Below, one piece after another: positions 13,118 to 63,905 of a stretch of 64,000 nucleotides of DNA (position 1 is the stretch's first letter; every line of letters begins with the position of its first letter). The translations under genes were made by a program, and so were the position numbers. Origin of the DNA: a virus (Duplodnaviria; Caudoviricetes); IMG/VR virus record IMGVR_UViG_3300028048_000075, positions 65,606 to 129,605 of that record; one strand, written 5' to 3'. The notes under the pieces are model-generated. The model did not search any database, was not told the DNA's origin, and saw nothing but the letters and a program-made list of their open reading frames with translations.

Positions 13118-13156
13118 CTGTTAAGACCCCCCCCCACACTTATATATTATAATAAT
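13118..13156 (+). promoter_or_regulatory. early-type promoter with poly-C (C9) spacer
   Basis: CTGTT-aaga-C9-acac-TTATATATTATAATA. Confidence 0.7.
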
Positions 13157-13177: not shown

Positions 13178-13825
13178 ATGCCTGAGAAAGAACTTAAAAT
13201 GATCGTTAGTAAGACGATCAATAGCAATCGTTTCATCGCATCGATTGCATACGGTCTCACTATGGGATTGTGGGGCCGTTATTATGCGGAGAATCTGAGT
13301 TTCGTGTGGACCCAGACTCAGATTCTTGTTATGTTTGTTGCTGGCTATATAGTTAACGATTTGGCTAGCAAGAAAATGACGTTCCGTAAGTCCATATTTT
13401 ACATGCGGAATGTTCTGGGCTTCATGGTCAGATTCATTGACCTGGTTACGGTTATATGGTTTACTGTAACTCATAGCCCAGCAGTACTTTTTATAGGAGA
13501 CATTGTCTCCTGTATATTCAGTGAAGTGGAGGCCATAGCCTGGACTGAAATGCACTCAGCCACTTTCACTGGCAATTTTAGGGCAGAGCACTCGGCCCGG
13601 AATCAAAAGGCCGGCAACCTCGGAAGCATAATAGCTTACGTAGCTGCTACATTGATTGCGTTTTTCATCGTTGGTGAAAAACCGATTAGTGAGGAAATAT
13701 TATTAGTGACACAATACATCATGGTCGTGGTGTGCTATGTCATTTATTTCCGCGGTCTTAAAATCTTCAAGCTCACAAGGCCTCTTGTTGAGGCCATGTG
13801 GGCTGAGAAGGAAAAAGAAGTGTAA
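13178..13825 (+). CDS. polytopic membrane protein, 215 aa (half-MFS-like topology)
   Basis: About 5-6 hydrophobic segments; AGGAGG RBS; higher GC than neighbours. Confidence 0.7.
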   Translation: MPEKELKMIVSKTINSNRFIASIAYGLTMGLWGRYYAENLSFVWTQTQILVMFVAGYIVNDLASKKMTFRKSIFYMRNVLGFMVRFIDLVTVIWFTVTHSPAVLFIGDIVSCIFSEVEAIAWTEMHSATFTGNFRAEHSARNQKAGNLGSIIAYVAATLIAFFIVGEKPISEEILLVTQYIMVVVCYVIYFRGLKIFKLTRPLVEAMWAEKEKEV

Positions 13826-13826
13826 G

Positions 13827-13857
13827 AAAGAAAGGGGCTTCGGCCCCTTCTTTTTTT
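13827..13857 (+). terminator. rho-independent terminator (UUCG loop)
   Basis: AAGGGGC-TTCG-GCCCCTT plus T-run. Confidence 0.85.
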
Positions 13858-19706: not shown

Positions 19707-20675
19707 ATGGCATACAGAACCAAACAATTTAACATCCTGTATAAGGAGTACTTGAAACCAGTTATGGATTTCGTGGGAATCACAACCTCTAATGACCCAG
19801 GTTGTGGTCTCATGAAATATATCGGTTGTGACAAAAAGAATCCAGAAGGAAAAGCTGTACCGACATATTTTGTCAATCAGTTTAATAACAACAAGATCTA
19901 TACGTTAGTCAGATCTCAAGACGAGTTCATTAACTATAGATCTCGTAAAGATGATTTGGAATACTTTAATCCATTTGTGAAGTACAAGAATGCATTATTG
20001 CTTTTGCTTATGACAACTCCTGTTATATACGAAAAGGTCGTAGACAGGAGTTTTTGCCAAAATGATGATGGTGTAGATCTCGATATCGTAAACGTAATTG
20101 TAGACGATGAACTTGCTATCACTCAGGAAGAAATTCTTAATCACGTTAGAATTCTTCAGTATCCGTTACGTAAAAATATGTATGACGAATCGATATATTC
20201 GTATGGTGTGGAGTTCTCTACAGATACAATGAGCTTATGCGATTCTGAGCTCATAGAAGGTATAACAAGTTCTGAAGACAGCAAAATATTGGCAGTATTC
20301 ATGTTGATCTTTAGGATTATGGCAAGATTTGAAGAGCCATTACCTATTCTTACAAAAGCTTGTGACGGTTCTTTTGAAAGACTTCGTGAGATGTTTGTTG
20401 ATACTCTTACAAAGTATGAGAAAGAACGTGAACTTAATAGAAAAGATATTAAGAAACTCAAGATCGAAACTGAAGTTGATGTATATCAGGGTGATGAACT
20501 TGAACTTCTTGATTCTAACGAATACGAATCTGTTTCAGATGCATTGGATAAATCTTCTTCTCCTGAAGATGAAGAGCTAACAAATGTTACTAATATTACA
20601 GACAAATACAAAGAAGTTATTCCTATCATCGATAAAGAAAGCGATGACGATATGCTAGAATTGGATTTCATCTAA
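19707..20675 (+). CDS. hypothetical protein with acidic C-terminus
   Basis: AAGGAGG RBS; long ORF. Confidence 0.8.
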   Translation: MAYRTKQFNILYKEYLKPVMDFVGITTSNDPGCGLMKYIGCDKKNPEGKAVPTYFVNQFNNNKIYTLVRSQDEFINYRSRKDDLEYFNPFVKYKNALLLLLMTTPVIYEKVVDRSFCQNDDGVDLDIVNVIVDDELAITQEEILNHVRILQYPLRKNMYDESIYSYGVEFSTDTMSLCDSELIEGITSSEDSKILAVFMLIFRIMARFEEPLPILTKACDGSFERLREMFVDTLTKYEKERELNRKDIKKLKIETEVDVYQGDELELLDSNEYESVSDALDKSSSPEDEELTNVTNITDKYKEVIPIIDKESDDDMLELDFI

Positions 20676-20679
20676 TACT

Positions 20680-20706
20680 AAAGAGGGCCTTGTGCCCTCT
20701 TTTTTT
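20680..20706 (+). terminator. rho-independent terminator
   Basis: AAGAGGGC/GCCCTCTT plus T-run. Confidence 0.8.
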
Positions 20707-20710
20707 GTTT

Positions 20711-21981: not shown

Positions 21982-24900
21982 ATGGGCGTTTATACACATA
22001 GCGCTTCGAGAGCAATATACGAACAAGAAATAAAAAAGGTTGGTAGTAACTTAACACATAGCGGTTCTAAAGCGATTTATCAACAAGAACTTGCAAAAGC
22101 TTCCAGCCAATATACACATAGCGCTTCAAAATCGGTATATGAACAAGAATTAGCCAAAGTTACTAATAAATATACACATTCTGCTTCAAAGTCAGTGTAT
22201 GAACAAGAATTGGCTAAGGCTACTAAAAATAACAGTACAGTTTCTAATGCTGCATCGACGTTTACTGGAGGTGGCGGATCATCGGGAACTTATTCGTCTG
22301 GTGGATCGTCTGGATCAAATCTTACCGCTAGTTCTTCTGACAATTCCAACTCTAATAATAGTAGTAGAAGTGGTTCAAAAGCTAGCGAAAGTGGTAATGG
22401 AGAAGCTAAACCTATAAATAACGTCTTATCAAATTATGATAATGAAGTAGTAGAAACTGAATCTGGATCTTCTGGTTTTGCATCAGGTTTATTGGAAACT
22501 TATAAAAATGGTGGAGCTCAAGGTCTCGTATCCAATCTTACAACTTCAGTAAGTTCATATCTGAATGATAAAATACAAAGTTTGAATAAACTTGCATCAG
22601 GATTTGCTTCTGGAATGCTCGATAAACTCGGGCTTTCTAAGTATCTTGACAAGTTTATGGAATTTGGAAACAAGTACTTCGGCGATGTAATGAAAATGTT
22701 GGGAGACATGAAAAATGATGCTCTTAGACAATTACAAAATGCCGCACTTAACTATATTTCTAACATAGTTGAAGATCTTACAGCTAACCTACTTTCAACA
22801 GTATATATTCCAGATTCTGTATTTAAACTGACTATCGAAGGATTATATAAAGCTGGTGCAGACCTTGCTTATAATAGTCATTATCTTCGCGATCATTGTC
22901 TTGCTAGAGACTGGAACGAAACGTTAAAATATGTTGATGAACAATATGGATTGGATTATTCTCCAGCTTATGACGAATTGATTGCTGATGTAGAAACATG
23001 TTCTCATGGTTCATGTTGGAAGAATCTTCATTATATTTTCGGCAAAATGTATGATCATTACAAATATATTGTAAAAGAAATTGGTAAGAATACTAGAGAA
23101 GTTGAAAAGATTATTGGTGGAGATATCTCCTCTCTTAATGAAATGACCGATGAAGAATTCAATACGAGATTTGATGATGTGACTATAGCTAAGATAGTTG
23201 CTTTACAAGGTATAATAGGAGATCTTACAAGAAATAAGACTCTTATCGAAGAAACTATGGTAAAAGGTCTTAAAGATCTTATTGTGTATTCATACACATA
23301 TGTAAGAGCATCTGATATTCGTAAATTCTTTACTGATTATCCAGAAATTTTGAAACCAATGTATTATGGTTCAACTGATAACAAATATAATCAAAGGTTT
23401 GCATTCACTGGTAGCGATATTGAAATAATGATGCCTATGCACGGTGATCATAAATTGACCGAAGCCGATGAGGCAATTTTGAATGATGTAAACTCTCATA
23501 TAAATGAATTAAGTGCTGCTGCAGATGAGGCTTCTAAAAATGCTACAGAATATGAACTTAGAGCTAAAGAAGCTGGTTTTTCTTTAGAAGATGGATACAC
23601 TATTGAAGGTGCTAAGAATAAAGCAGCTGCATCAATATCTACACTTAGAAAAAACGTCAATCAAAATCAGAAAGACAGATATGGAACTCTTAGTAGAACA
23701 GCATTAACTAAAGGTTCCAATGGTGTATATAAAGCTTCTATGGCAAGATACACGATGAAGAACTCTAAGAAAGACAAAGTCAAGTATCGTAGTAAGGATA
23801 TTGATGATGTACTTGAAGCTACAATGACTTATGATAACACTTGGGTAGATCTTAGAAATAAGAATATCAAGACAATTTATGTTTTGCTTGCTAATGAAAC
23901 TATTTTTGGTTCAGAAATGATGGTCAATAAAGCTTTTTATGACCGTTGTAAGATACCTACAGCCACAGTTCTCAAAACTAGTCTTGATAAAGCTAGAGGT
24001 ATTCTTGGAACTTCTATGCTAGTTCAATCAATGTTTGATCTTTCTGATGCAATTGATGGTTCGGCATATAACTACACCAAGAGTGTTGAAGATTATTTGT
24101 TTGATCCTTCTGTTAACCGTAGTGCAGATAGCTTAGCCGAAGTTTTTGGTGGTGCATGGAAACTTACTTTTGAAGAATTGAATGAACCTGATATAAAAGA
24201 TCTTAAAATCACAGGTGATTTGGTTGAAGGCGAGATTGTAAATCCTCAAGATGTTGCTTCAAATCATGTTGTAAATAACAATACTCTTGAAAAAATAAAT
24301 AAAATGCTCGATGCTAACTTGGTTGCTAAGAGAGCTATAGTTAATATCTTACGTTTTGCTTCAAATATTCCTATGCTTAATCGTAGAGATATAATTATAA
24401 AATGGCTCTATTTCTTTTATAATGCTATGGTTTCTAAAGGAATCGATCAGGCTATTAGACAAAGAACGTTATCATCATTGGTTTACTATGTATTTGGTAA
24501 GAAAGGTATTACCGATATAAGTGAAATCAACGGCATATTCGATTATGCTACTACAGAGTCATTGAATGATAATATTAAAGTTTTGGCAGCAATTAGTAAA
24601 CTTCAGCTATATGAAGAAGCTATGAGACTTGAAGAAACTGAGTTTAAGACAACTATTATTAAACTCTATAAGCTTGCTGTGGATATGATGGCTAGAGAAG
24701 TTGAAGACATAGGATTTATCAAATCTCTATTCAAATACGATAAAGAATATTTGAAAACGTTCTTTAAAGCATCTTTCTATAATGAAGTTGATTTCTTAAA
24801 GAGTATCAATTCTAGAGATAATCTCTTGTATGGCATTTTCTATCCACATAAAGATAATCTTACAGAACATTTCGACGGTTTTGATAGAACTGGTATTTTC

Positions 24901-28144: not shown

Positions 28145-28960
28145 ATGTTATGGATAAAGAATTCAAAATTACGAAAAAGCATATTATTGCTTGTTGTATT
28201 ACTATCGTTCTTTGTATCGGGTCTTTCTGCGCAGGCAGGTTCCTCAGATTTAGAGGAATTTCAGGAACTAGCCAGCAGCTTATCGACGGAGTCGTACTTA
28301 GCAGAGAAACAGCAGATAAACTTGCTGATGAGCTTAATATTGCAAGAGCTTCACTCAGCTCCTCAGAAAACTATGGACAAACAATCCTTGAAGGAATTGG
28401 AGAATTACGAAAAGCTAGTGAAGTCGGAAGATTATGCTCAGATGCCATTAAGTTATCAATTGAAAGAGATGCGGAAAACAATGAAAATCTACTCAAAGCT
28501 CGAGGAGACTATTTCGAATCAGTCGACTACGCTATCGAATTGGCAACTCAACGTGCTGAACTATATGAGCAAATTGTTCGAACATATGAACAGGCTGTCT
28601 TTTATAATGGAAAAAATAGTAACGAGTCAGAACCAGGACATGGGGTTGGCAATTAACGAATTAAACAAAGCGTTATCAGATGTAGATTTTTTACAAACAC
28701 ATCTTGCTAGTATGGAAATATTAGCAAGAAAACAAGCTGAAGAAATTGCTGCGTTAAATAACCGATATAAAGGATTAAAACGAGTTAGAATTGGAAGTCT
28801 TTGTATTGGTGGTGCTAGTTTGTTTATCGGTGTCACCGGTTATTTTGTACATAAGACTGATAGTTCTGAAGAACTCGGTAAAATGATGATGTATGCTGGT
28901 GCTACAGCTTTAGGATGTAGTGCAGCAACATTTGGATTAAGTTTTAGCATACCTTTTTAA
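28145..28960 (+). CDS. signal-peptide, coiled-coil protein with C-terminal hydrophobic segments (spanin-like candidate)
   Basis: KLRKSILLLVVLLSFFVSGLSA signal; coiled coil; C-terminal IGSLCIGGASLFIGVTG and ATFGLSFSIPF. Confidence 0.65.
   Translation: MLWIKNSKLRKSILLLVVLLSFFVSGLSAQAGSSDLEEFQELASSLSTESYLAEKQQINLLMSLILQELHSAPQKTMDKQSLKELENYEKLVKSEDYAQMPLSYQLKEMRKTMKIYSKLEETISNQSTTLSNWQLNVLNYMSKLFEHMNRLSFIMEKIVTSQNQDMGLAINELNKALSDVDFLQTHLASMEILARKQAEEIAALNNRYKGLKRVRIGSLCIGGASLFIGVTGYFVHKTDSSEELGKMMMYAGATALGCSAATFGLSFSIPF
28150..28656 (+). CDS. N-terminal TM, coiled-coil protein nested in another frame (i-spanin-like candidate)
   Basis: KKHIIACCITIVLCIGSFCAGRF anchor then heptad-rich helix; normal phage codon usage; shares RBS with 28145. 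Confidence 0.65.
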   Translation: MDKEFKITKKHIIACCITIVLCIGSFCAGRFLRFRGISGTSQQLIDGVVLSRETADKLADELNIARASLSSSENYGQTILEGIGELRKASEVGRLCSDAIKLSIERDAENNENLLKARGDYFESVDYAIELATQRAELYEQIVRTYEQAVFYNGKNSNESEPGHGVGN

Positions 28961-28997
28961 AGATACTTATATATTATATTACTGTAGGGAGGATTCT

Positions 28998-29159
28998 ATG
29001 GATGCAGTGTACCTAGAAGATATTTTGTCAGCAAAACGTGGATCTGAAGAAAGAAAACATGCTATTAACAGAGCTAGAGCTTATGTTAATGAAAAGTATG
29101 GAATAGATCTAAAAGATCCTACGAAGTTTCTTATTCAAAATATCGAAGAATCTAAATGA
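28998..29159 (+). CDS. small hypothetical protein, 53 aa
   Basis: GGAGG RBS; early-type motif near 28967; read manually. Confidence 0.7.
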   Translation: MDAVYLEDILSAKRGSEERKHAINRARAYVNEKYGIDLKDPTKFLIQNIEESK

Positions 29160-29162
29160 TGG

Positions 29163-29192
29163 TAATGGTGGAGAGTTTTCTCTCCACCATTA
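29163..29192 (+). other. strong intergenic hairpin
   Basis: TAATGGTGGAGAG-tttt-CTCTCCACCATTA. Confidence 0.75.
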
Positions 29193-29221
29193 ATATTTGT
29201 TTTCATATTAAGGAGTATAAT

Positions 29222-29743
29222 ATGAGAAACCGATGTGACTGGAACGCAGTCATCGAGGACATTAAAGCAAATGCTGGAAAATATTCTCGAATGGATATTT
29301 GCGAAAAATATAACATGACTTATTGGGCTTGTACACAATATTTTCATCATCATGAAAATTATGCTAAGCTCTTAAGACATGTTGACAATATCAAGGTGGA
29401 TCGCAAACGATTTAAAGAAATCGTTGAGCAGAATCCTAACAAATATTCTGTTGACGATCTCGCAGAAATGTTTTCTGTATCAAGATCTGCAATTTTCAAT
29501 TTGATACGCAATGACCCACAGATTACAAAATTGAAAGGTTTGATATGTATATCGTATAGTCATCCAAAGTTCGATTGGGAAACTATCGATAAACGTGTTT
29601 TGCCAATAATTTCGCATTTGAGGGTTACGGATGTCGCGGATTATTATAACATCCAGTTTGCTACAGTTCACAAGCATTACGAAATGCTCAATGTGATTGA
29701 CAAATTTGGAACGGATATTATCAATCCGCTGAATTACTTGTAG
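29222..29743 (+). CDS. tandem HTH-repeat protein (3 repeats)
   Basis: AAGGAG RBS; DW..(V/I)..DI...GKYS..DI..KY repeats; paralog of the next gene. Confidence 0.75.
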   Translation: MRNRCDWNAVIEDIKANAGKYSRMDICEKYNMTYWACTQYFHHHENYAKLLRHVDNIKVDRKRFKEIVEQNPNKYSVDDLAEMFSVSRSAIFNLIRNDPQITKLKGLICISYSHPKFDWETIDKRVLPIISHLRVTDVADYYNIQFATVHKHYEMLNVIDKFGTDIINPLNYL

Positions 29744-29774
29744 TGTAATGATAATAATACTGTAAGGAGGTATT

Positions 29775-31175
29775 ATGGAAAAACAAAAACGTGATTGGAA
29801 AACCATTGAGGATGATATTAGAAATCATCCCGGTGTTTATTCCAAAGCTGATATTACTCGTAAATATCAGTTAAGGAAATTCGAATGTCAAGTACATTTC
29901 AGATATCGTCTTGAGTTCGAAGATCTGTTTCGCAACGGGTACGAAAAGTATGACTGGAAAACTGTCGAAGAAGACATTAGACAGAATCCAGGCGTATATT
30001 CTCGAATGGATATTTGTGAAAAATACAACATTTGTAGAACAGCAGCCATATCCCATTTTAAAAAGAATAAGGAATTCAAACCTTTGCTTTGTGTCAAAAA
30101 TCGTAAAGATCTTAGATATGATTGGCAAAGCATAGAGCAAGATGTTAGAGACAATCCTAACAAATACTCTTTTGCAATTATAACTAAGAAATACGGCATG
30201 ACATTTTCAGCTTGTATAAATCACTTTAAACATTGTCCAGAATTAAAAGAATTGATTTTGGACGATTCGACGTTCCGAAAGTACAATTGGAAAATCATCG
30301 AAGATGACATTAAAAGTTGTCCTCGTGGTGAATATTCGATTACCGACATTTGTAAAAAATACGGAACAACGATTACAGCGTGTTTATCACGTTTCAGGAA
30401 ATCAAAGATGATGTCATATCTTCGACCTGGTAATTGGAAGTACAACTGGATACCTGTTTATGAAGACATCAAACAGAATCCAGGGAAATACACTACAGAC
30501 ATGATTTCCAAAAAGTATAATATTCCTCAAGTTGTTGTACAATCAATGCTAGGTCATCATCCTGAACTGAAAAGTTTAGTGATATCGTTGAAAGCCCATG
30601 TTGATTGGGAAATCATCGAGGAAGATATTAGAAATCATCCAGGTGAATATACTCAAGCTGATATTATTCGAAAGTACGATCTTCACGATTTTTCGGTAGT
30701 CAGTAGGCATTTCAAGAGGCATCCGGAAAGCAAAAAGTTTCTTCGTGATGGTTCTGGACAAGGTAGACCAAAATTGGTGAATGTGCCAGAAACTCGAAGA
30801 AAATTTAGCGTTTCTGAACAAAGGTGCAGAATGATTAAAGAATTTCTTACTTTACATCGAAAAGAATATACTAAAAAAGAAGTTCTGAAAATTCTTAATA
30901 TCACTGATATACCACTTAGAAACTTCTTGAAGTTATTTCCTGAGTATGAAGTATGTTTAAAGGCTTCGGAAGATAATCGTGGACGTGGAAGAAAACTTGA
31001 TTGGAAGCATATCGATGAGAAAATTGTTCCAATCATTGAGAAGCTTACTGTGGATAATATTTGCAAGCATTTTAGTATCTGCAAAAGTTCGGTTAGGGCA
31101 CATTTGAAAGAACTTGGTCTTTTAAATAAGATCGGGACTAATATTCCTAATCCGTTGGATCCACAGTATGACTAA
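29775..31175 (+). CDS. tandem HTH-repeat protein (about 8 repeats of about 53 aa)
   Basis: AAGGAGG RBS; repeats (Y/V)DW..IE.DI..NPG.YS..DI..KY; GRPK and RGRGRK linkers. Confidence 0.8.
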   Translation: MEKQKRDWKTIEDDIRNHPGVYSKADITRKYQLRKFECQVHFRYRLEFEDLFRNGYEKYDWKTVEEDIRQNPGVYSRMDICEKYNICRTAAISHFKKNKEFKPLLCVKNRKDLRYDWQSIEQDVRDNPNKYSFAIITKKYGMTFSACINHFKHCPELKELILDDSTFRKYNWKIIEDDIKSCPRGEYSITDICKKYGTTITACLSRFRKSKMMSYLRPGNWKYNWIPVYEDIKQNPGKYTTDMISKKYNIPQVVVQSMLGHHPELKSLVISLKAHVDWEIIEEDIRNHPGEYTQADIIRKYDLHDFSVVSRHFKRHPESKKFLRDGSGQGRPKLVNVPETRRKFSVSEQRCRMIKEFLTLHRKEYTKKEVLKILNITDIPLRNFLKLFPEYEVCLKASEDNRGRGRKLDWKHIDEKIVPIIEKLTVDNICKHFSICKSSVRAHLKELGLLNKIGTNIPNPLDPQYD

Positions 31176-31179
31176 TCTA

Positions 31180-31207
31180 AAGAAGGGCTTCGGCCCTTCT
31201 TTTTTTT
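31180..31207 (+). terminator. rho-independent terminator (UUCG loop)
   Basis: AGAAGGGC-TTCG-GCCCTTCT plus T-run. Confidence 0.85.
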
Positions 31208-31235: not shown

Positions 31236-31541
31236 ATGATTGTAACACGTACTGAAGATGGTTCATTTAAATATACTTTATCCTCAGAAGAATTAACAAT
31301 GGATCCTAAGAATTTTGCTAAATTTATCGATTTTGCTATTGAGGAATCAAGAAAGAAATATGATTTATGTATGCAGTTATCAGAAAAATTGGCTAACGAT
31401 ATAGAACGTAGATCTAATGAATCTATAGCTGCAATAAATAGAGAAAAACGTTTGTTAGATGAAACTCATAAAGAACTAAAAAATGGGTTAATTAATATTT
31501 TTAAAGAATGTTTGGAGCCACAAGAATACAAGCCAAAATAA
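31236..31541 (+). CDS. small coiled-coil hypothetical protein
   Basis: ORF fills the gap; no clear RBS, so start uncertain. Confidence 0.6.
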   Translation: MIVTRTEDGSFKYTLSSEELTMDPKNFAKFIDFAIEESRKKYDLCMQLSEKLANDIERRSNESIAAINREKRLLDETHKELKNGLINIFKECLEPQEYKPK

Positions 31542-31583
31542 TTTAATTACATATTATAATAGTAGAAATAGGAGGTGTTTCAT

Positions 31584-32882
31584 ATGTCGACTGATGAAAC
31601 CACAACAACAAATGAGAAGCCTGTAGTGGCCAAAAAGGCTTCTAAGAACAAAGTCCGCTTTGTCATTCTTACCAATGGACAGGGTGGAGCCCGTATTGGT
31701 GCACTGCTTGCAGCAAGTCTTCCAAATAACCCCTATATGATCGCAATTAACACAAGCGATCAGGACCTGGAAAGAACTAAGTTGCCTGATGCACAATGCT
31801 TTAAAATCGGTGGTGAAAATGCCGATGGAGCTGGAAAGAACAGAAATCGTGCAAAGACGTATTTCAAGAAGTTCAGTTCCACAACAGCCGATGGAAAGAA
31901 AATGGATGCGATCCAGACAATCATTGGGTACTATGAAGAAGTATTCTTCCACCCAACAGACCAGACGATCATCATTTCCGTTTTCTCATCTGACGGTGGT
32001 ACGGGTTCAGGACTTGGACCAATGCTTACAGCATCTTTGACAAACTACGTAAACTCTGTAAAGAGTTTCCACATTGGTAACAATGAGTTTGTTATTGACG
32101 ATGTAACAAATGAAGTTCCAAGACCAGTTGTAATCGGTTTGACACCACGCTGCTCAGTAGCATCTGGTGCTACGAACCTCCAAAACACCATTGAGTGTTT
32201 CCTTGATATCCAAAGAACGATCGATGCTGGTATTGGTCACTTCTTCATCGCCGACAATAATTTGCCGGAAGGTGTGAAGTATACCAACACGGAAGAGTTC
32301 TACAACATCGTAAACGCAAGAATTGTCGCACCGTTTGTGAAATTCTTTGGCGTTGAGATGAATTCCGACATCAAGTGTATGGACCTTCAGGACAAGATCA
32401 ATACGCTTAGAATGTCTGGTTGTAGCGCATTTACTACAGTTACAAATGTCAACCAGTTCAATTTCGCTGTACCTAAGGGTCAGTCTGTCCTAAGGACAGT
32501 TCAGATGCTTAGACACGATGTTGAAGATCTGACAGCTGAGGAAAATGCCGCAAAAGCACTCGTAAAGAAATTGGATATCATGAGTGTTGATACTACTTCG
32601 GTATTCTTTAATGTTGCTGATTCCGGTATCACAACAGATAAGGTAGCACAGGACCTTATCAGTGCATCCATGATTGGCTTCTTTGGTTTCAAGTCACTCA
32701 ATGCGATTGTTGAAGATTTGAGAGACAATCTCCATCGCACTCAGGTGGCTAATGACAAGAAGTACAATGTCGTTCAGGAACATTCTACAGGTTTCACATC
32801 AGTTAAGTCTGATGCTGAAGAACTTGCAGACAAATTTGGTTCCAAGACAATGGATCAGTCAAGTCTGTTAGACTTGTTCTAA
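31584..32882 (+). CDS. tubulin/FtsZ-family GTPase (PhuZ/TubZ-like)
   Basis: GQGGARIG, AINTSDQDL, DGAGKNR, signature GGTGSG, ADNN, MDLQD (T7-like); AGGAGG RBS; early-type promoter near 31547. Confidence 0.9.
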   Translation: MSTDETTTTNEKPVVAKKASKNKVRFVILTNGQGGARIGALLAASLPNNPYMIAINTSDQDLERTKLPDAQCFKIGGENADGAGKNRNRAKTYFKKFSSTTADGKKMDAIQTIIGYYEEVFFHPTDQTIIISVFSSDGGTGSGLGPMLTASLTNYVNSVKSFHIGNNEFVIDDVTNEVPRPVVIGLTPRCSVASGATNLQNTIECFLDIQRTIDAGIGHFFIADNNLPEGVKYTNTEEFYNIVNARIVAPFVKFFGVEMNSDIKCMDLQDKINTLRMSGCSAFTTVTNVNQFNFAVPKGQSVLRTVQMLRHDVEDLTAEENAAKALVKKLDIMSVDTTSVFFNVADSGITTDKVAQDLISASMIGFFGFKSLNAIVEDLRDNLHRTQVANDKKYNVVQEHSTGFTSVKSDAEELADKFGSKTMDQSSLLDLF

Positions 32883-32904
32883 TAAGACTATGTAGCCTTG
32901 TGTA

Positions 32905-32939
32905 AAAGGGCCCCGGAGTTTCCGGGGTTCTTTTTTTTT
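32905..32939 (+). terminator. rho-independent terminator
   Basis: GGCCCCGGA/TCCGGGGTT stem plus T-run. Confidence 0.8.
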
Positions 32940-40235: not shown

Positions 40236-40273
40236 CTGTTTAAACCCCCCCCCCACTTATATATTATAATAAT
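40236..40273 (+). promoter_or_regulatory. early-type promoter with poly-C (C10) spacer
   Basis: CTGTT-taaa-C10-ac-TTATATATTATAATA. Confidence 0.7.
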
Positions 40274-41854: not shown

Positions 41855-41876
41855 AATAACGATTTAATAAATATAA

Positions 41877-41905
41877 AGAAGGGCTTCGGCCCTTCTTTTT
41901 TTTTT
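41877..41905 (+). terminator. rho-independent terminator (UUCG loop)
   Basis: AGAAGGGC-TTCG-GCCCTTCT plus T-run. Confidence 0.85.
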
Positions 41906-58900: not shown

Positions 58901-59281
58901 TTGAAAGTTAAGATGGAAGGGCCTATTTCGCTTTTCGATTTTATTGTTAGCTTAGCGGAATCTGTATTTTCACCAAATGGAAAACAAGAATCTCCGTATG
59001 ACGTTAACTTTACAAATCACTATACAAGACTCTACGATCTAGAAGAGACTTGTAGAAATGATTTTGACCAAGAGCTTAATATAACACAGATCGAACAGGA
59101 CAAAAAGACCAAGTCCATCAACGTTCGACTTAATTCAAGTCTTAATAAAAAGACTGAAGATAAATTTAAAGAATACTGCAATACACATAATGTTGAATAC
59201 AACATTTCAAAAGGAAAACTCAAAGATATAACAATCACCAAAAATACCAAAGGTGTAATGGAGGAACGTAAATGGAAATGA
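58901..59281 (+). CDS. hypothetical protein
   Basis: AAGGA upstream of TTG start; overlaps chaperonin start. Confidence 0.65.
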   Translation: MKVKMEGPISLFDFIVSLAESVFSPNGKQESPYDVNFTNHYTRLYDLEETCRNDFDQELNITQIEQDKKTKSINVRLNSSLNKKTEDKFKEYCNTHNVEYNISKGKLKDITITKNTKGVMEERKWK

Positions 59282-61359
59282 TGGATACATCAGAATTTGA
59301 TGAATGTGTAAGTAAATCTAAGTTTATGGACGCGGATTTTACTGATATGCGTGTTTCAGAAGTAGGATATGGTAGAGACGAATACCAGACTTCAAAGCCA
59401 AACATTTTGCGTAATGATGCTATTATTGCTGAAATAATGAAAGTGTCCGCTGCTGCTGAAACTGCTATTGGCCACACTATTGGCCCTTATGCAGATGCTA
59501 CTCTTGTACAGACATTTGCTGATCGTGAAGTTCCTATTTATAACACTAGGGATGGTTTCACTATTCTTCAGAATATGAAGTATACTCAACCAATTCCTAA
59601 TGGTATTTTTAAGATGATTCGTGAAGCATCTGAATATATGCAGACTGAAGTTGGTGACTCAACTTCTTCTGGTATTCCTATTCAGAACGCATTGCTTAAA
59701 GCATATGTTGAAATCTTTAATGATCAAACTGCCGGAAAATGGAAGTATTCCCCAGTTGGTATCAAAAACATTACAGAAATCTGTGTTGAAGAGATTATTA
59801 AAGGTATCAACAATAATCCAGTTTACCATAAGGAATTCCCTAAACCAGATGAAAATGGTAAATATACAAAAGAACAGGAAGACGAAATCATTAAGTGGTT
59901 GAGCAAAGTTGCTACAATTTCTGCAAACAACGACTACAGAATTGGTGCAACTATGGCTGAACTCTATCGTGATAAACTCGATGGTAGAGGTCATGTTCTT
60001 ACAACCGTTTCTAAGACAGAAGAAGAATACTGGGAAAATACTGATGCATTCAGAGTTCCTGTAGGTCCTATTGATGAAAACCGTATGAATAATTCTTCAG
60101 ATGGATTCACATGGGAAGCAGATAATCCTGCAGTTGTAATGTTCGATGGTTCTCTTCTTGAAACAGATCTTCCTGCTCTTAAACAGATCATTGAAACAAT
60201 TTCGTTCGACGATCCTGAGAATCTTTATAGACCAATTATGCTTGTTGCAAGCAATTTCGATTGGCATATTGCTCAGTATCTTCGTGAATGTATCGATGGT
60301 ACATATTACAACGAACTTGGTCAGTGTATTAAGGATGAAGGAGCAAATCCTGCAGCAAAGACTAAAGCTCTGACTATTTGTGGTATCATTCTTAAGAATA
60401 AGGAAATTGCTGAACAGTTCAGGTTTAATGATCTTAAACTTATGACAGGTTCAAGAGCATTTAGTACAGAACTCACAAAGATGTCTGAACTATCTCCTGA
60501 AAAAGAACTCAGATTGCAGCAGGTAAACAATCTGATTGGTACTTGTAAACATATTTCTTCTGGTAGAGCAGAAACAAACTTTGTTGGCTGTGAACCAAAT
60601 AAAGAAGAATTCGATGCTCTTATTGCAGATCTTAAATCTCAGGCAGAAAAACTTAAGAGAGTTAAGTTCCATATGACAGATTATAGTGCTGATGATCTTT
60701 ATGGTCGTATCGATAATCTTCAGGCAAGAACTACTTTCTTCTACTGTGGTGGTAGATCAGCAAAGGCAAAATATTCCAGAAAACTTATTATCGAAGATGC
60801 TTCAGCTGCTGTAGAAGCTGCTATTAAGAGTGGTGGTGTTTCTATCGGTGGTAACATGGCTATTTGTCATTACATTGAGCATAATTTCGACACAATCGTA
60901 GAAAATGTGCTCAATACCATTGGCAATGTCCGCATCAACATTACAGCTGCAGAAAACTTTAACACATTGAAAGACATTATCGAGCTTATTCTCGAATCCA
61001 TTAAGTATTCATTTGGTAATGCTTACAGATATGCTCTTTACAATATGTATCGTGATCCTGAACAGTGTATGAAAACTTGGACAAGGTGTCTCAAATCCGA
61101 AGTTCCAACGATTTATAACATTATGACAAATGCTGATGAAACTTTCGATTCTACAGATTCTCAGAAGTGTACAACAATAATCGTACCTAAAAATACTGAT
61201 ATTTGTCTATTGCACATTGTAACTGAGACTGTATCTGAATTGATCAACATTGGCAACATGATTACTGTTATGTCTCCTGGAATTGACCTTGAAACGTTGC
61301 AATTGAAGCAGCTCGCTTCTGGTGCAGCATATATGGCAAGTTCAAGCATGTACAGATAA
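59272..61359 (+). CDS. groEL: GroEL-like phage chaperonin
   Basis: TIGPY, TRDGFTIL, EVGDSTSS, VATISAN, IEDASAAVEAAIKSGGVSIGG. Confidence 0.88.
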   Translation: MEMMDTSEFDECVSKSKFMDADFTDMRVSEVGYGRDEYQTSKPNILRNDAIIAEIMKVSAAAETAIGHTIGPYADATLVQTFADREVPIYNTRDGFTILQNMKYTQPIPNGIFKMIREASEYMQTEVGDSTSSGIPIQNALLKAYVEIFNDQTAGKWKYSPVGIKNITEICVEEIIKGINNNPVYHKEFPKPDENGKYTKEQEDEIIKWLSKVATISANNDYRIGATMAELYRDKLDGRGHVLTTVSKTEEEYWENTDAFRVPVGPIDENRMNNSSDGFTWEADNPAVVMFDGSLLETDLPALKQIIETISFDDPENLYRPIMLVASNFDWHIAQYLRECIDGTYYNELGQCIKDEGANPAAKTKALTICGIILKNKEIAEQFRFNDLKLMTGSRAFSTELTKMSELSPEKELRLQQVNNLIGTCKHISSGRAETNFVGCEPNKEEFDALIADLKSQAEKLKRVKFHMTDYSADDLYGRIDNLQARTTFFYCGGRSAKAKYSRKLIIEDASAAVEAAIKSGGVSIGGNMAICHYIEHNFDTIVENVLNTIGNVRINITAAENFNTLKDIIELILESIKYSFGNAYRYALYNMYRDPEQCMKTWTRCLKSEVPTIYNIMTNADETFDSTDSQKCTTIIVPKNTDICLLHIVTETVSELINIGNMITVMSPGIDLETLQLKQLASGAAYMASSSMYR

Positions 61360-63866: not shown

Positions 63867-63905
63867 CTGTTCAACCCCCCCCCCCCGATTATATATTATA
63901 ATATT
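63867..63905 (+). promoter_or_regulatory. early-type promoter with poly-C (C12) spacer
   Basis: CTGTT-caa-C12-ga-TTATATATTATAATA. Confidence 0.7.

Follow-up and report, generated by a model that had tools for sequence, protein, structure and literature searches.

Two paralogous poly-helix-turn-helix proteins as candidate early DNA-binding regulators in an uncultured rumen jumbo phage

The window analysed here is a stretch of 64,000 nucleotides (nt) from an uncultured phage, corresponding to bases 65606-129605 of a 129.6-kb IMG/VR viral contig (record IMGVR_UViG_3300028048_000075; estimated completeness, 46%). Its subject is a pair of adjacent plus-strand genes, A and B, whose products consist of tandem helix-turn-helix (HTH) modules, three in A and eight in B, and which lie near a gene for a tubulin-like GTPase. 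A and B are probably lineage-specific, early-expressed, single-chain poly-HTH DNA binders with different addresses and a shared cap and tail, functioning as regulators or host-takeover factors. In the proposed mechanism, the third helix of each module would be placed in the DNA major groove and, because the third helices differ between modules, a chain may recognize either one long composite site extending over tens of base pairs or a set of dispersed sites. The three modules of A and the eight of B would have different DNA addresses, while the shared cap and its [FI]GT.I.NPL tail probably would serve a common function, for instance as a docking site. The pair would be transcribed from an AR9-type early promoter, with transcription ended by its own terminator, and would regulate transcription or host takeover early in the infection, independently of the tubulin. 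The two genes and their modules are as follows:

29222..29743, plus strand: gene A, 173 amino acids (aa), three HTH modules, modelled with AlphaFold2 (AF2)
29225-29389, plus strand: module A1
29390-29560, plus strand: module A2
29561-29740, plus strand: cap module A3, with the tail FGTDIINPLNYL
29775..31175, plus strand: gene B, 466 aa, isoelectric point (pI) 9.3, eight HTH modules
29781-29945, plus strand: module B1
29940-30113, plus strand: module B2
30108-30278, plus strand: module B3
30273-30431, plus strand: module B4
30432-30596, plus strand: module B5
30591-30764, plus strand: module B6
30750..30809, plus strand: basic linker GSGQGRPKLVNVPETRRKFS before B7, net charge +4
30792-30980, plus strand: module B7
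30987-31172, plus strand: cap module B8, with the tail IGTNIPNPLDPQYD

Each of the two genes has a good ribosome-binding site. The start of A at 29222 is backed by an AAGGAG ribosome-binding site at 29211-29216, as well as by the upstream hairpin at 29163-29192 and by database variants, 172-173 aa long, with the N-terminal sequence MRNRCDW or MGRCNW. In both proteins, D/N-W anchors recur at a spacing of 53-56 residues, dividing A into a canonical module (A1), a module without the W (A2) and a cap (A3), and B into six canonical modules (B1-B6), a basic linker, a divergent module without the DW anchor (B7) and a cap (B8). This repeat architecture had been described in a first-pass annotation of the stretch, and all six variable segments quoted there are present as written. 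The annotation had also proposed a variable putative recognition helix. Across the seven canonical modules, column entropy is low in the NPG.YS loop (0.83 bits), helix 2 (1.11 bits) and helix 1 (1.17 bits) and higher in the turn (1.97 bits) and in helix 3 (1.84 bits), the most variable of the three helices; the description of a constant scaffold with a variable third helix is therefore quantitatively true. The canonical modules share 25-47% amino acid identity (41% between A1 and B2) and are old duplicates. In this respect they differ from TALE-like (transcription activator-like effector) arrays, in which near-identical repeats vary at a few specificity residues: near-identity was not found among the canonical modules of A and B, and their variability, while peaking in helix 3, spreads over the whole module.

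The common capping repeat that had been noted at the end of both proteins is likewise borne out. A3 and B8 share 36% identity, as against 7-24% with the remaining modules, and both end in [FI]GT.I.NPL. No other occurrence of this motif was found in a six-frame translation of the 129.6-kb contig, and among all proteins fetched it is found only in members of the family (variants of A and B, P0004 and P0016), at 3-8 residues from the C terminus.

The models of A and B were built by AF2 from an alignment of 15 sequences and from only 3 sequences, respectively. The model of A contains three tri-helical modules, with helices of 10-14, 7 and 10 residues, and has a mean predicted local distance difference test (pLDDT) score of 84.7, exceeding 90 in most 10-residue blocks within modules; its low predicted template modelling (pTM) score of 0.41 suggests that the beads have no fixed mutual orientation. 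Eight tri-helical modules are predicted for B (pLDDT, 66.8; pTM, 0.23), with linkers below pLDDT 50, and there is no beta wing in either model. In a VIA-align structural search against 48,161 PDB representatives, single modules matched at Z scores of 5.0-5.5 and root-mean-square deviations (rmsd) of 1.6-2.7 Å overall; the matches include the DNA-binding domain of SETMAR (Z 5.0, rmsd 1.6 Å over 42 residues, 21% identity), the Mos1 transposase (Z 5.3), FapR (Z 5.5), NolR (Z 5.2), and HTH domains of the MarR and IclR types.

Sequence profiles point in the same direction. B scores 50.6 bits, summed over its repeats, against Pfam HTH_Tnp_IS630 (cut-off, 21.3), and its residues 350-377, within module B7, match the resolvase-type HTH_7 at 22.2 bits (cut-off, 23.8), while A has sub-threshold matches to HTH_23, HTH_11 and HTH_17. 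Three of the nine closer relatives scanned pass HTH_psq (cut-off, 20.4), namely P0004 at 31.3 bits, P0007 at 36.2 bits and P0009 at 25.1 bits. Neither the module profile nor B gave a significant match in sequence searches of the PDB, where the best matches were a designed thioredoxin (E 0.011) and IclR (E 0.014); NCBIfam and PADLOC returned only noise for the proteins of the locus, and a weak match of A to phrog_59 (E 0.0047) lies outside the profile stretch that is matched by the contig's own HNH gene. The three predicted helices per module, the VIA matches to HTH domains and the HTH_Tnp_IS630 score support the annotation's view of the modules as HTH-like, arranged as beads on flexible linkers, and suggest, more specifically, homeodomain-like HTH domains of the Psq/IS630 group.

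The nearest described architecture is that of Drosophila Psq, which carries four such repeats in tandem. The HTH domains of Psq, CENP-B and the pogo-Tc1-IS630 elements resemble the modules of A and B in being three-helix, DNA-binding-type units of about 50 aa. Unlike those proteins, which have one to four modules, A and B have three and eight, lack a BTB or transposase domain and are encoded by a phage; the family also has a signature of its own, comprising the D/N-W anchor, the NPG.YS loop, the cap module and the NPL tail. A conserved 51-aa sequence of Psq is described as necessary for binding to DNA, with its greatest similarity being to CENP-B and transposases (PMC11178893).

The charge pattern of B is compatible with binding to DNA. 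Its net charge is +24 (pI 9.3), with an acidic helix 1, basic helices 2 and 3, and basic linkers. The stretch GRPK precedes B7 and a second basic stretch, RGRGRK, precedes B8; by analogy, both look like minor-groove arms, and they could add minor-groove or backbone contacts to those made by the third helices. In Hin and the resolvases, HTH_7 domains place a GRPR arm in the minor groove. B7 is similar in that it is preceded by GRPK and matches HTH_7, and a distant member of the family, P0020, has RGRP-type linkers between its HTH modules. B differs from Hin and the resolvases in that the B7 score falls under the cut-off and a recombinase catalytic domain is absent, and the likeness of the arms is an analogy.

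The phage itself can be placed by gene content. The contig encodes at least five split multisubunit RNA polymerase (RNAP) genes of the beta/beta′ type, two topoisomerase II genes, UvsX and DNA polymerases, together with a GroEL-like gene and an anaerobic ribonucleotide reductase; G+C content is about 33%. The closest cultured-phage matches of its RNAP subunit are those of Bacillus phages AR9 and PBS1, at about 30% identity. The stretch was detected in bovine-gut metagenomes from 15 studies, and a contig of 279 kb carries a database variant of gene A. The RNAP and other gene content, the AR9 and PBS1 matches and the bovine-gut occurrence identify the source as an uncultured jumbo phage, AR9/phiKZ-like and infecting a rumen anaerobe. 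No named match to chimallin emerged from PHROG scans of the contig, and the phage is therefore not called nucleus-forming.

A and B belong to a short transcription unit that is bounded by recognizable signals and followed by the unit that contains the tubulin gene:

28968..28984, plus strand: AR9-type early (virion-RNAP) promoter-like element, exact TATATATTAT-N6-G, predicted start at G 28984, 14 nt before g53
28998..29159, plus strand: g53, open reading frame (ORF) of 53 aa without family, first gene of the unit
29163..29192, plus strand: hairpin of 13 pairs with a weak T tail, between g53 and A
31179..31202, plus strand: intrinsic terminator, a GC-rich stem of 10 pairs followed by T8, closing the g53-A-B unit
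31236..31541, plus strand: g101, ORF of 101 aa without family, directly upstream of the tubulin gene and outside the HTH unit
31584..32882, plus strand: divergent tubulin/PhuZ-like GTPase, outside the HTH unit, with its own terminator at 32904-32934

The element upstream of g53 is recurrent on the contig. Allowing at most one mismatch, TTATATATTATA(A/T)TAATG was found in 37 copies (21 on the plus strand and 16 on the minus strand), compared with 8.6 per strand in shuffled sequences, and most copies lie 13-60 nt upstream of co-oriented genes, often just past terminators. The early promoter consensus reported for the virion RNAP of AR9 is AAATATATATTAT-(6N)-G+1 (PMC5312081), and the contig element matches it. 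By analogy with AR9, the element probably marks a virion-RNAP early regulon of this phage. The unit of g101 and tubulin has no such early-promoter element upstream. In the window, the predicted +1 G of the copies lies at 1580, 4217, 5868, 13157, 28984, 38070, 40274, 40624, 48345, 48693, 49842 and 63906, and more copies are present in the other half of the contig; among the many genes that a copy precedes are one for an RNAP subunit and one for a DNA polymerase. Runs of 9-12 C are found between the T-run of a terminator and three of the early-promoter copies (about 13128-13136, 40245-40254 and 63875-63886 of the window).

RNA-library contigs from two studies cover A and B. In the metatranscriptome run X2, one contig spans 28140-31182 without differences and ends at 31182, and the next spans 31305-32908. 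Word depth over the tubulin unit and the A-B unit, respectively, was 126 versus 12.5, 29.3 versus 4.6-7.3 and 161.7 versus 17.8 in three RNA runs of two studies, while it was flat in a DNA run (9.4 versus 12.9). This pattern of contigs and depth gives a weak hint that A and B are transcribed and that the two units are separate. Breaks in RNA-run contigs near 28972-28992 were considered as a possible transcript start; they coincide with an insertion/deletion polymorphism of g53 and were not used. This first gene is dispensable, as in a DNA variant from run X4 (95-99% identity) position 28989 is joined directly to 29160, without g53.

At the other end of the unit, some X4 contigs have unrelated DNA abutting 31174-31207, suggesting that the terminator is a cassette boundary. 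The sequence of this terminator is also repeated elsewhere, with 31174-31207 and 41870-41903 being 97% identical over 34 nt and 13824-13857 and 20675-20708 being 74% identical to the first; from these identities, the phage appears to reuse a terminator module. A further motif, [AT]TACTGTA, stands at 28979, 29757 and 31227 of the window, each time just upstream of a start codon (those of g53, B and g101). With 13 copies on that strand in 129.6 kb, the local cluster of three in 2.3 kb has a Poisson P of about 0.002, and the motif may be a local operator, a translation signal or a product of chance.

The first-pass annotation had seen the arrays as re-shufflable, a view that the available variants do not support. 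Across 13 database variants of A (more than 90% identical), the third helices of A1 and A3 are unchanged in all, and that of A2 differs in two (P0162 and P0163). In four public runs, which come from three studies, the contigs (95-100% identity) are colinear across the arrays and have no joints inside them, and B is 84-98% conserved in its two relatives. The sole difference in module number is in P0002, which starts at module 2. The unchanged third helices and the colinear contigs therefore indicate that the arrays are under purifying selection and are not reshuffled on the sampled timescale. A link in run X4 from 28159 to 30454, with 24 foreign letters, is unexplained. Diversifying selection on helix 3 was also considered, using the substitutions between B and P0002, which number 17 of 70 positions in helix 3 and 50 of 341 elsewhere (one-sided P, 0.039). 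That signal comes from module B2 alone (P is 0.34 when B2 is left out), and no claim is made from it.

A related proposal, that modules were recently duplicated or converted between the two genes, had been based on a 36-nt likeness between them:

29281..29316, plus strand: patch in A1, encoding YSRMDICEKYN (loop and helix 2)
29996..30031, plus strand: partner patch in B2, 34 of 36 nt identical to 29281-29316

The likeness itself is real, with two of the 36 nt differing, and the run of 11 identical residues in A1 and B2 stands out from the other 20 module pairs, in which the longest run is at most 7. Once the peptide is identical, the identity of the DNA is largely explained by codon bias: 9 of the 11 codons are identical, as against 6.8 expected under phage codon usage for the same peptide (P of about 0.12 for codons and about 0.08 for nucleotides). 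Given this, and an identity of 25-47% among modules, a recent module duplication or conversion is not upheld. At one same position of the patch, an E/K polymorphism occurs both among variants of A and among variants of B; it is compatible with occasional conversion without proving it, and recent conversion is only weakly indicated.

The family has a narrow distribution. A word-based search of 5.8 billion proteins returned two relatives of B, one 98% identical and the other, P0002, 84% identical (414 aa, beginning at module 2). A profile of the 11 modules searched against 1.84 billion representatives matched 180 proteins at E≤1e-3, 29 of them at E≤1e-10. These carry 1-16 matched stretches, and the one with 16 (P0045) is a near-perfect simple repeat. 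About 10 clusters have the D/N-W signature with a period of 52-55 aa (P0002-4, 6, 7, 9, 10, 16, 21 and 53), while many other scanned matches (P0008, P0011, P0012, P0015, P0019, P0020 and P0022) are generic HTH_23/28/7 or sigma-region-4 arrays. The D/N-W subfamily is small. No match for B, the tubulin, P0004 or P0007 was found by tblastn in 50,697 phage records. Scans of IMG/VR with B, P0004, P0007 and P0010 found no relatives, and nothing was found in JGI metagenomes with B and the alignment A5 or in 185,579 GTDB species genomes with A5. Within the family, P0165 has five modules with an average identity of 54%, in which helix 2 is invariant and helix 3 variable, which indicates that the family expands when modules are duplicated in tandem and then diverge in helix 3. 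P0173 and P0175 are different three-module members that both list a longest contig of 47,923 bases, and they may share one contig; if they do, paralogue pairs recur.

More distant neighbours are found by structure. In the ESM Atlas, the neighbours of A and B are multi-HTH_23/HTH_7/Sigma70_r4_2 proteins of Bacteroidota and Uroviricota. In BFVD, seven structural neighbours were obtained at E≤1e-3 and, lower down, a protein named as HTH psq-type domain-containing together with phage endonucleases (E 5e-3 to 2.4e-2) of the LAGLIDADG, HNH and Vsr types that contain tandem HTH parts. In structure, A and B resemble the tandem-HTH regions of phage homing endonucleases, as well as uncharacterised proteins with several HTHs from Bacteroidota and tailed phages, from which they differ in having no catalytic or sigma domain. 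A nuclease or transposase domain was not found in A, B, g53 or g101 with Pfam, PHROGs, NCBIfam or PADLOC, and a free-standing homing endonuclease or transposase was rejected on this ground. The best structural neighbours of A in BFVD include A0A141HSI2 and A0A141HSI3 (230 and 447 aa, adjacent accessions), along with two others from the same series; these two could represent a similar pairing of a short and a long poly-HTH protein in a different virus.

The position of the pair beside a tubulin gene had led the first-pass annotation to raise a TubR-like role, in which A and/or B would bind a centromere-like phage site and couple it to the tubulin filament. The neighbouring protein does belong to the tubulin family (PHROG PhuZ, E 6e-6; Pfam Tubulin, E 2e-3), B does lie two genes upstream, ending 408 nt before the tubulin start, and the shared C-terminal tail could be a docking peptide. 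TubR of the TubZRC systems (Bacillus plasmids and Clostridium phage c-st) is also an HTH-type protein encoded near a tubulin-family gene; it is a winged-helix dimer of about 100 aa, cotranscribed directly upstream of tubZ and beside iterated tubC sites. A and B, in contrast, are multi-module monomers with three and eight tri-helical modules without a predicted wing, in a terminated unit of their own, and neither iterons nor non-coding tandem or phased repeats were found at the locus or across the 129.6-kb contig (46% complete). A strong terminator (31179-31202) and a further gene, g101, stand between B and the tubulin gene, the early-promoter element precedes g53-A-B and is absent before g101 and the tubulin gene, and the separate RNA-library contigs, with roughly 10-fold greater depth on the tubulin unit, are a weak hint in the same direction.

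The TubR-like role is also at odds with the comparison of related phages. Of 61 relatives of the tubulin (23-96% identity), all but one share at least 45% identity with it, and homologues of 60-68% identity are found at six IMG/VR loci. Three of the six (L010-L012) are syntenic with the flanks of the window, sharing the 1691-aa gene, a minus-strand 311-aa gene, a secreted coiled-coil protein, the tubulin, g802, g244 and g610, and between these conserved flanks g53, A, B and g101 are absent; g101 has no homologue in the six related loci. An ORF with the modules was found within 7 kb of the tubulin gene in none of five related loci, and the module profile gave no match at E≤0.01 in any of five related phage records, two of them 94% and 99% complete, while it recovered all 11 modules in its own contig as a positive control. 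The absence of the cassette from syntenic relatives indicates that A and B form a lineage-specific accessory cassette, located next to a conserved tubulin gene by chance. A complex prediction for the tubulin with A scored 0.00 against a mark of 0.32 and is evidence neither way. The TubR analogy fails on every testable feature, and an adaptor role is very improbable.

Three other explanations deserve consideration. The arrays could be a non-DNA scaffold, that is, tandem helical or winged-helix-like chains whose ligands are RNA or proteins, as for SelB or UFL1/DDRGK1, and that organize, for example, an early phage complex. The whole-model Foldseek results and a UFM1 E3 complex (8ohd) that ties for the top VIA match at Z 5.5 would suit such a function, as would the three acidic modules and the lack of a DNA target in the contig. 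Every profile match, however, is to a DNA-binding HTH family, the models have no beta wing, both helix 2 and helix 3 are basic, GRP and RGR motifs occur in the linkers, and the distant relatives are canonical HTH_23/HTH_7/sigma-r4 arrays; a scaffold is therefore unlikely. It is also doubtful, to a similar degree, that the genes are the remnant or cargo of a mobile cassette, with a lineage of homing endonucleases or transposases having lost its catalytic domain and kept its DNA-binding part as a selfish or neutral element. Such an origin would explain why g53-A-B-g101, with its own promoter and terminator, is inserted between genes that are syntenic in three of the six loci, and it would fit the X4 contigs in which other DNA abuts 31174-31207 or g53 is missing, the best Pfam match being to a transposase HTH, and the endonucleases among the BFVD neighbours. 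Against it stand the missing nuclease and transposase domains, the clear purifying selection on A over 13 variants, the conservation of B in its two relatives, the ribosome-binding sites of both genes and their presence in RNA libraries of two studies. Finally, many weakly specific HTH beads could coat, bridge or compact phage or host DNA as an architectural, nucleoid-type protein, given that B is highly positive and multivalent with flexible linkers and that the contig contains no discrete target motif. The third helix is distinct in each module and conserved among variants, so specific recognition is favoured over generic coating; closely related phages, which would need the same architecture, lack the arrays, and the RNA-library word depth is modest relative to the tubulin unit, a weak hint. 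This last explanation is quite unlikely.

The reading of A and B as early DNA-binding regulators or host-takeover factors has to be held against several results that weigh on the other side. No target motif, iterons or phased repeats were found in the 129.6-kb contig. A is near neutral (pI 8.3), and B3, B6 and A3 are acidic. Module Z scores of about 5 are modest, as expected for a domain of 50 residues, and may reflect only a common helical arrangement; a single stretch of B alone passes HTH_Tnp_IS630, and neither A nor B matches HTH_psq. With the whole model of A, Foldseek found nothing in the PDB at E≤1e-3, and the matches at the top of its list, SelB and UFL1/DDRGK1 (E 0.1-0.4), are RNA- or protein-binding arrays of tandem winged helices. 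The early timing is by analogy with AR9, with an RNAP subunit only about 30% identical, and contigs cannot show transcript starts, while RNA libraries may contain DNA. A more specific form of the DNA-binding reading is unlikely as it stands: A and B would be two address readers of one early system, each reading a different address of about 40-80 bp in host or phage DNA, with the shared cap and tail recruiting the same effector (for example the phage RNA polymerase, a nuclease or the tubulin). If it were true, the pair would be a naturally occurring modular platform that targets DNA with a single chain of HTH beads and evolves as modules duplicate and their third helices diverge.

Descriptions of a single chain that carries eight different HTH modules are rare, and literature searches found no paper on phage poly-HTH arrays; as far as those searches reach, such arrays are apparently unstudied in phages. 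If each bead reads a few base pairs, A and B would show a virus building long-site specificity from the simplest DNA-binding fold, and engineered DNA readers could be built on poly-HTH chains. For an uncultured rumen lineage of jumbo phages that appears to use AR9-type early promoters, the locus provides a candidate for an early regulator or a host-takeover factor, and the analysis removes a tempting but unsupported link between HTH arrays and the phage tubulin.

Elsewhere on the contig, the GroEL-like chaperonin gene occupies 59272-61359 of the window (phrog_5725, E 1.6e-43). The anaerobic ribonucleotide reductase gene nrdD is split into two pieces on the minus strand (contig bases 5925-9093; profile positions 3-227 and 270-712), and an HNH endonuclease gene lies between them, resembling a homing insertion of the intron or intein type. 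The 1691-aa protein, which is conserved in related phages, has four tandem 60-nt (20-aa) repeats (YTHSASK.VYEQELAKA...) at its N terminus, encoded at 21991-22231 of the window.

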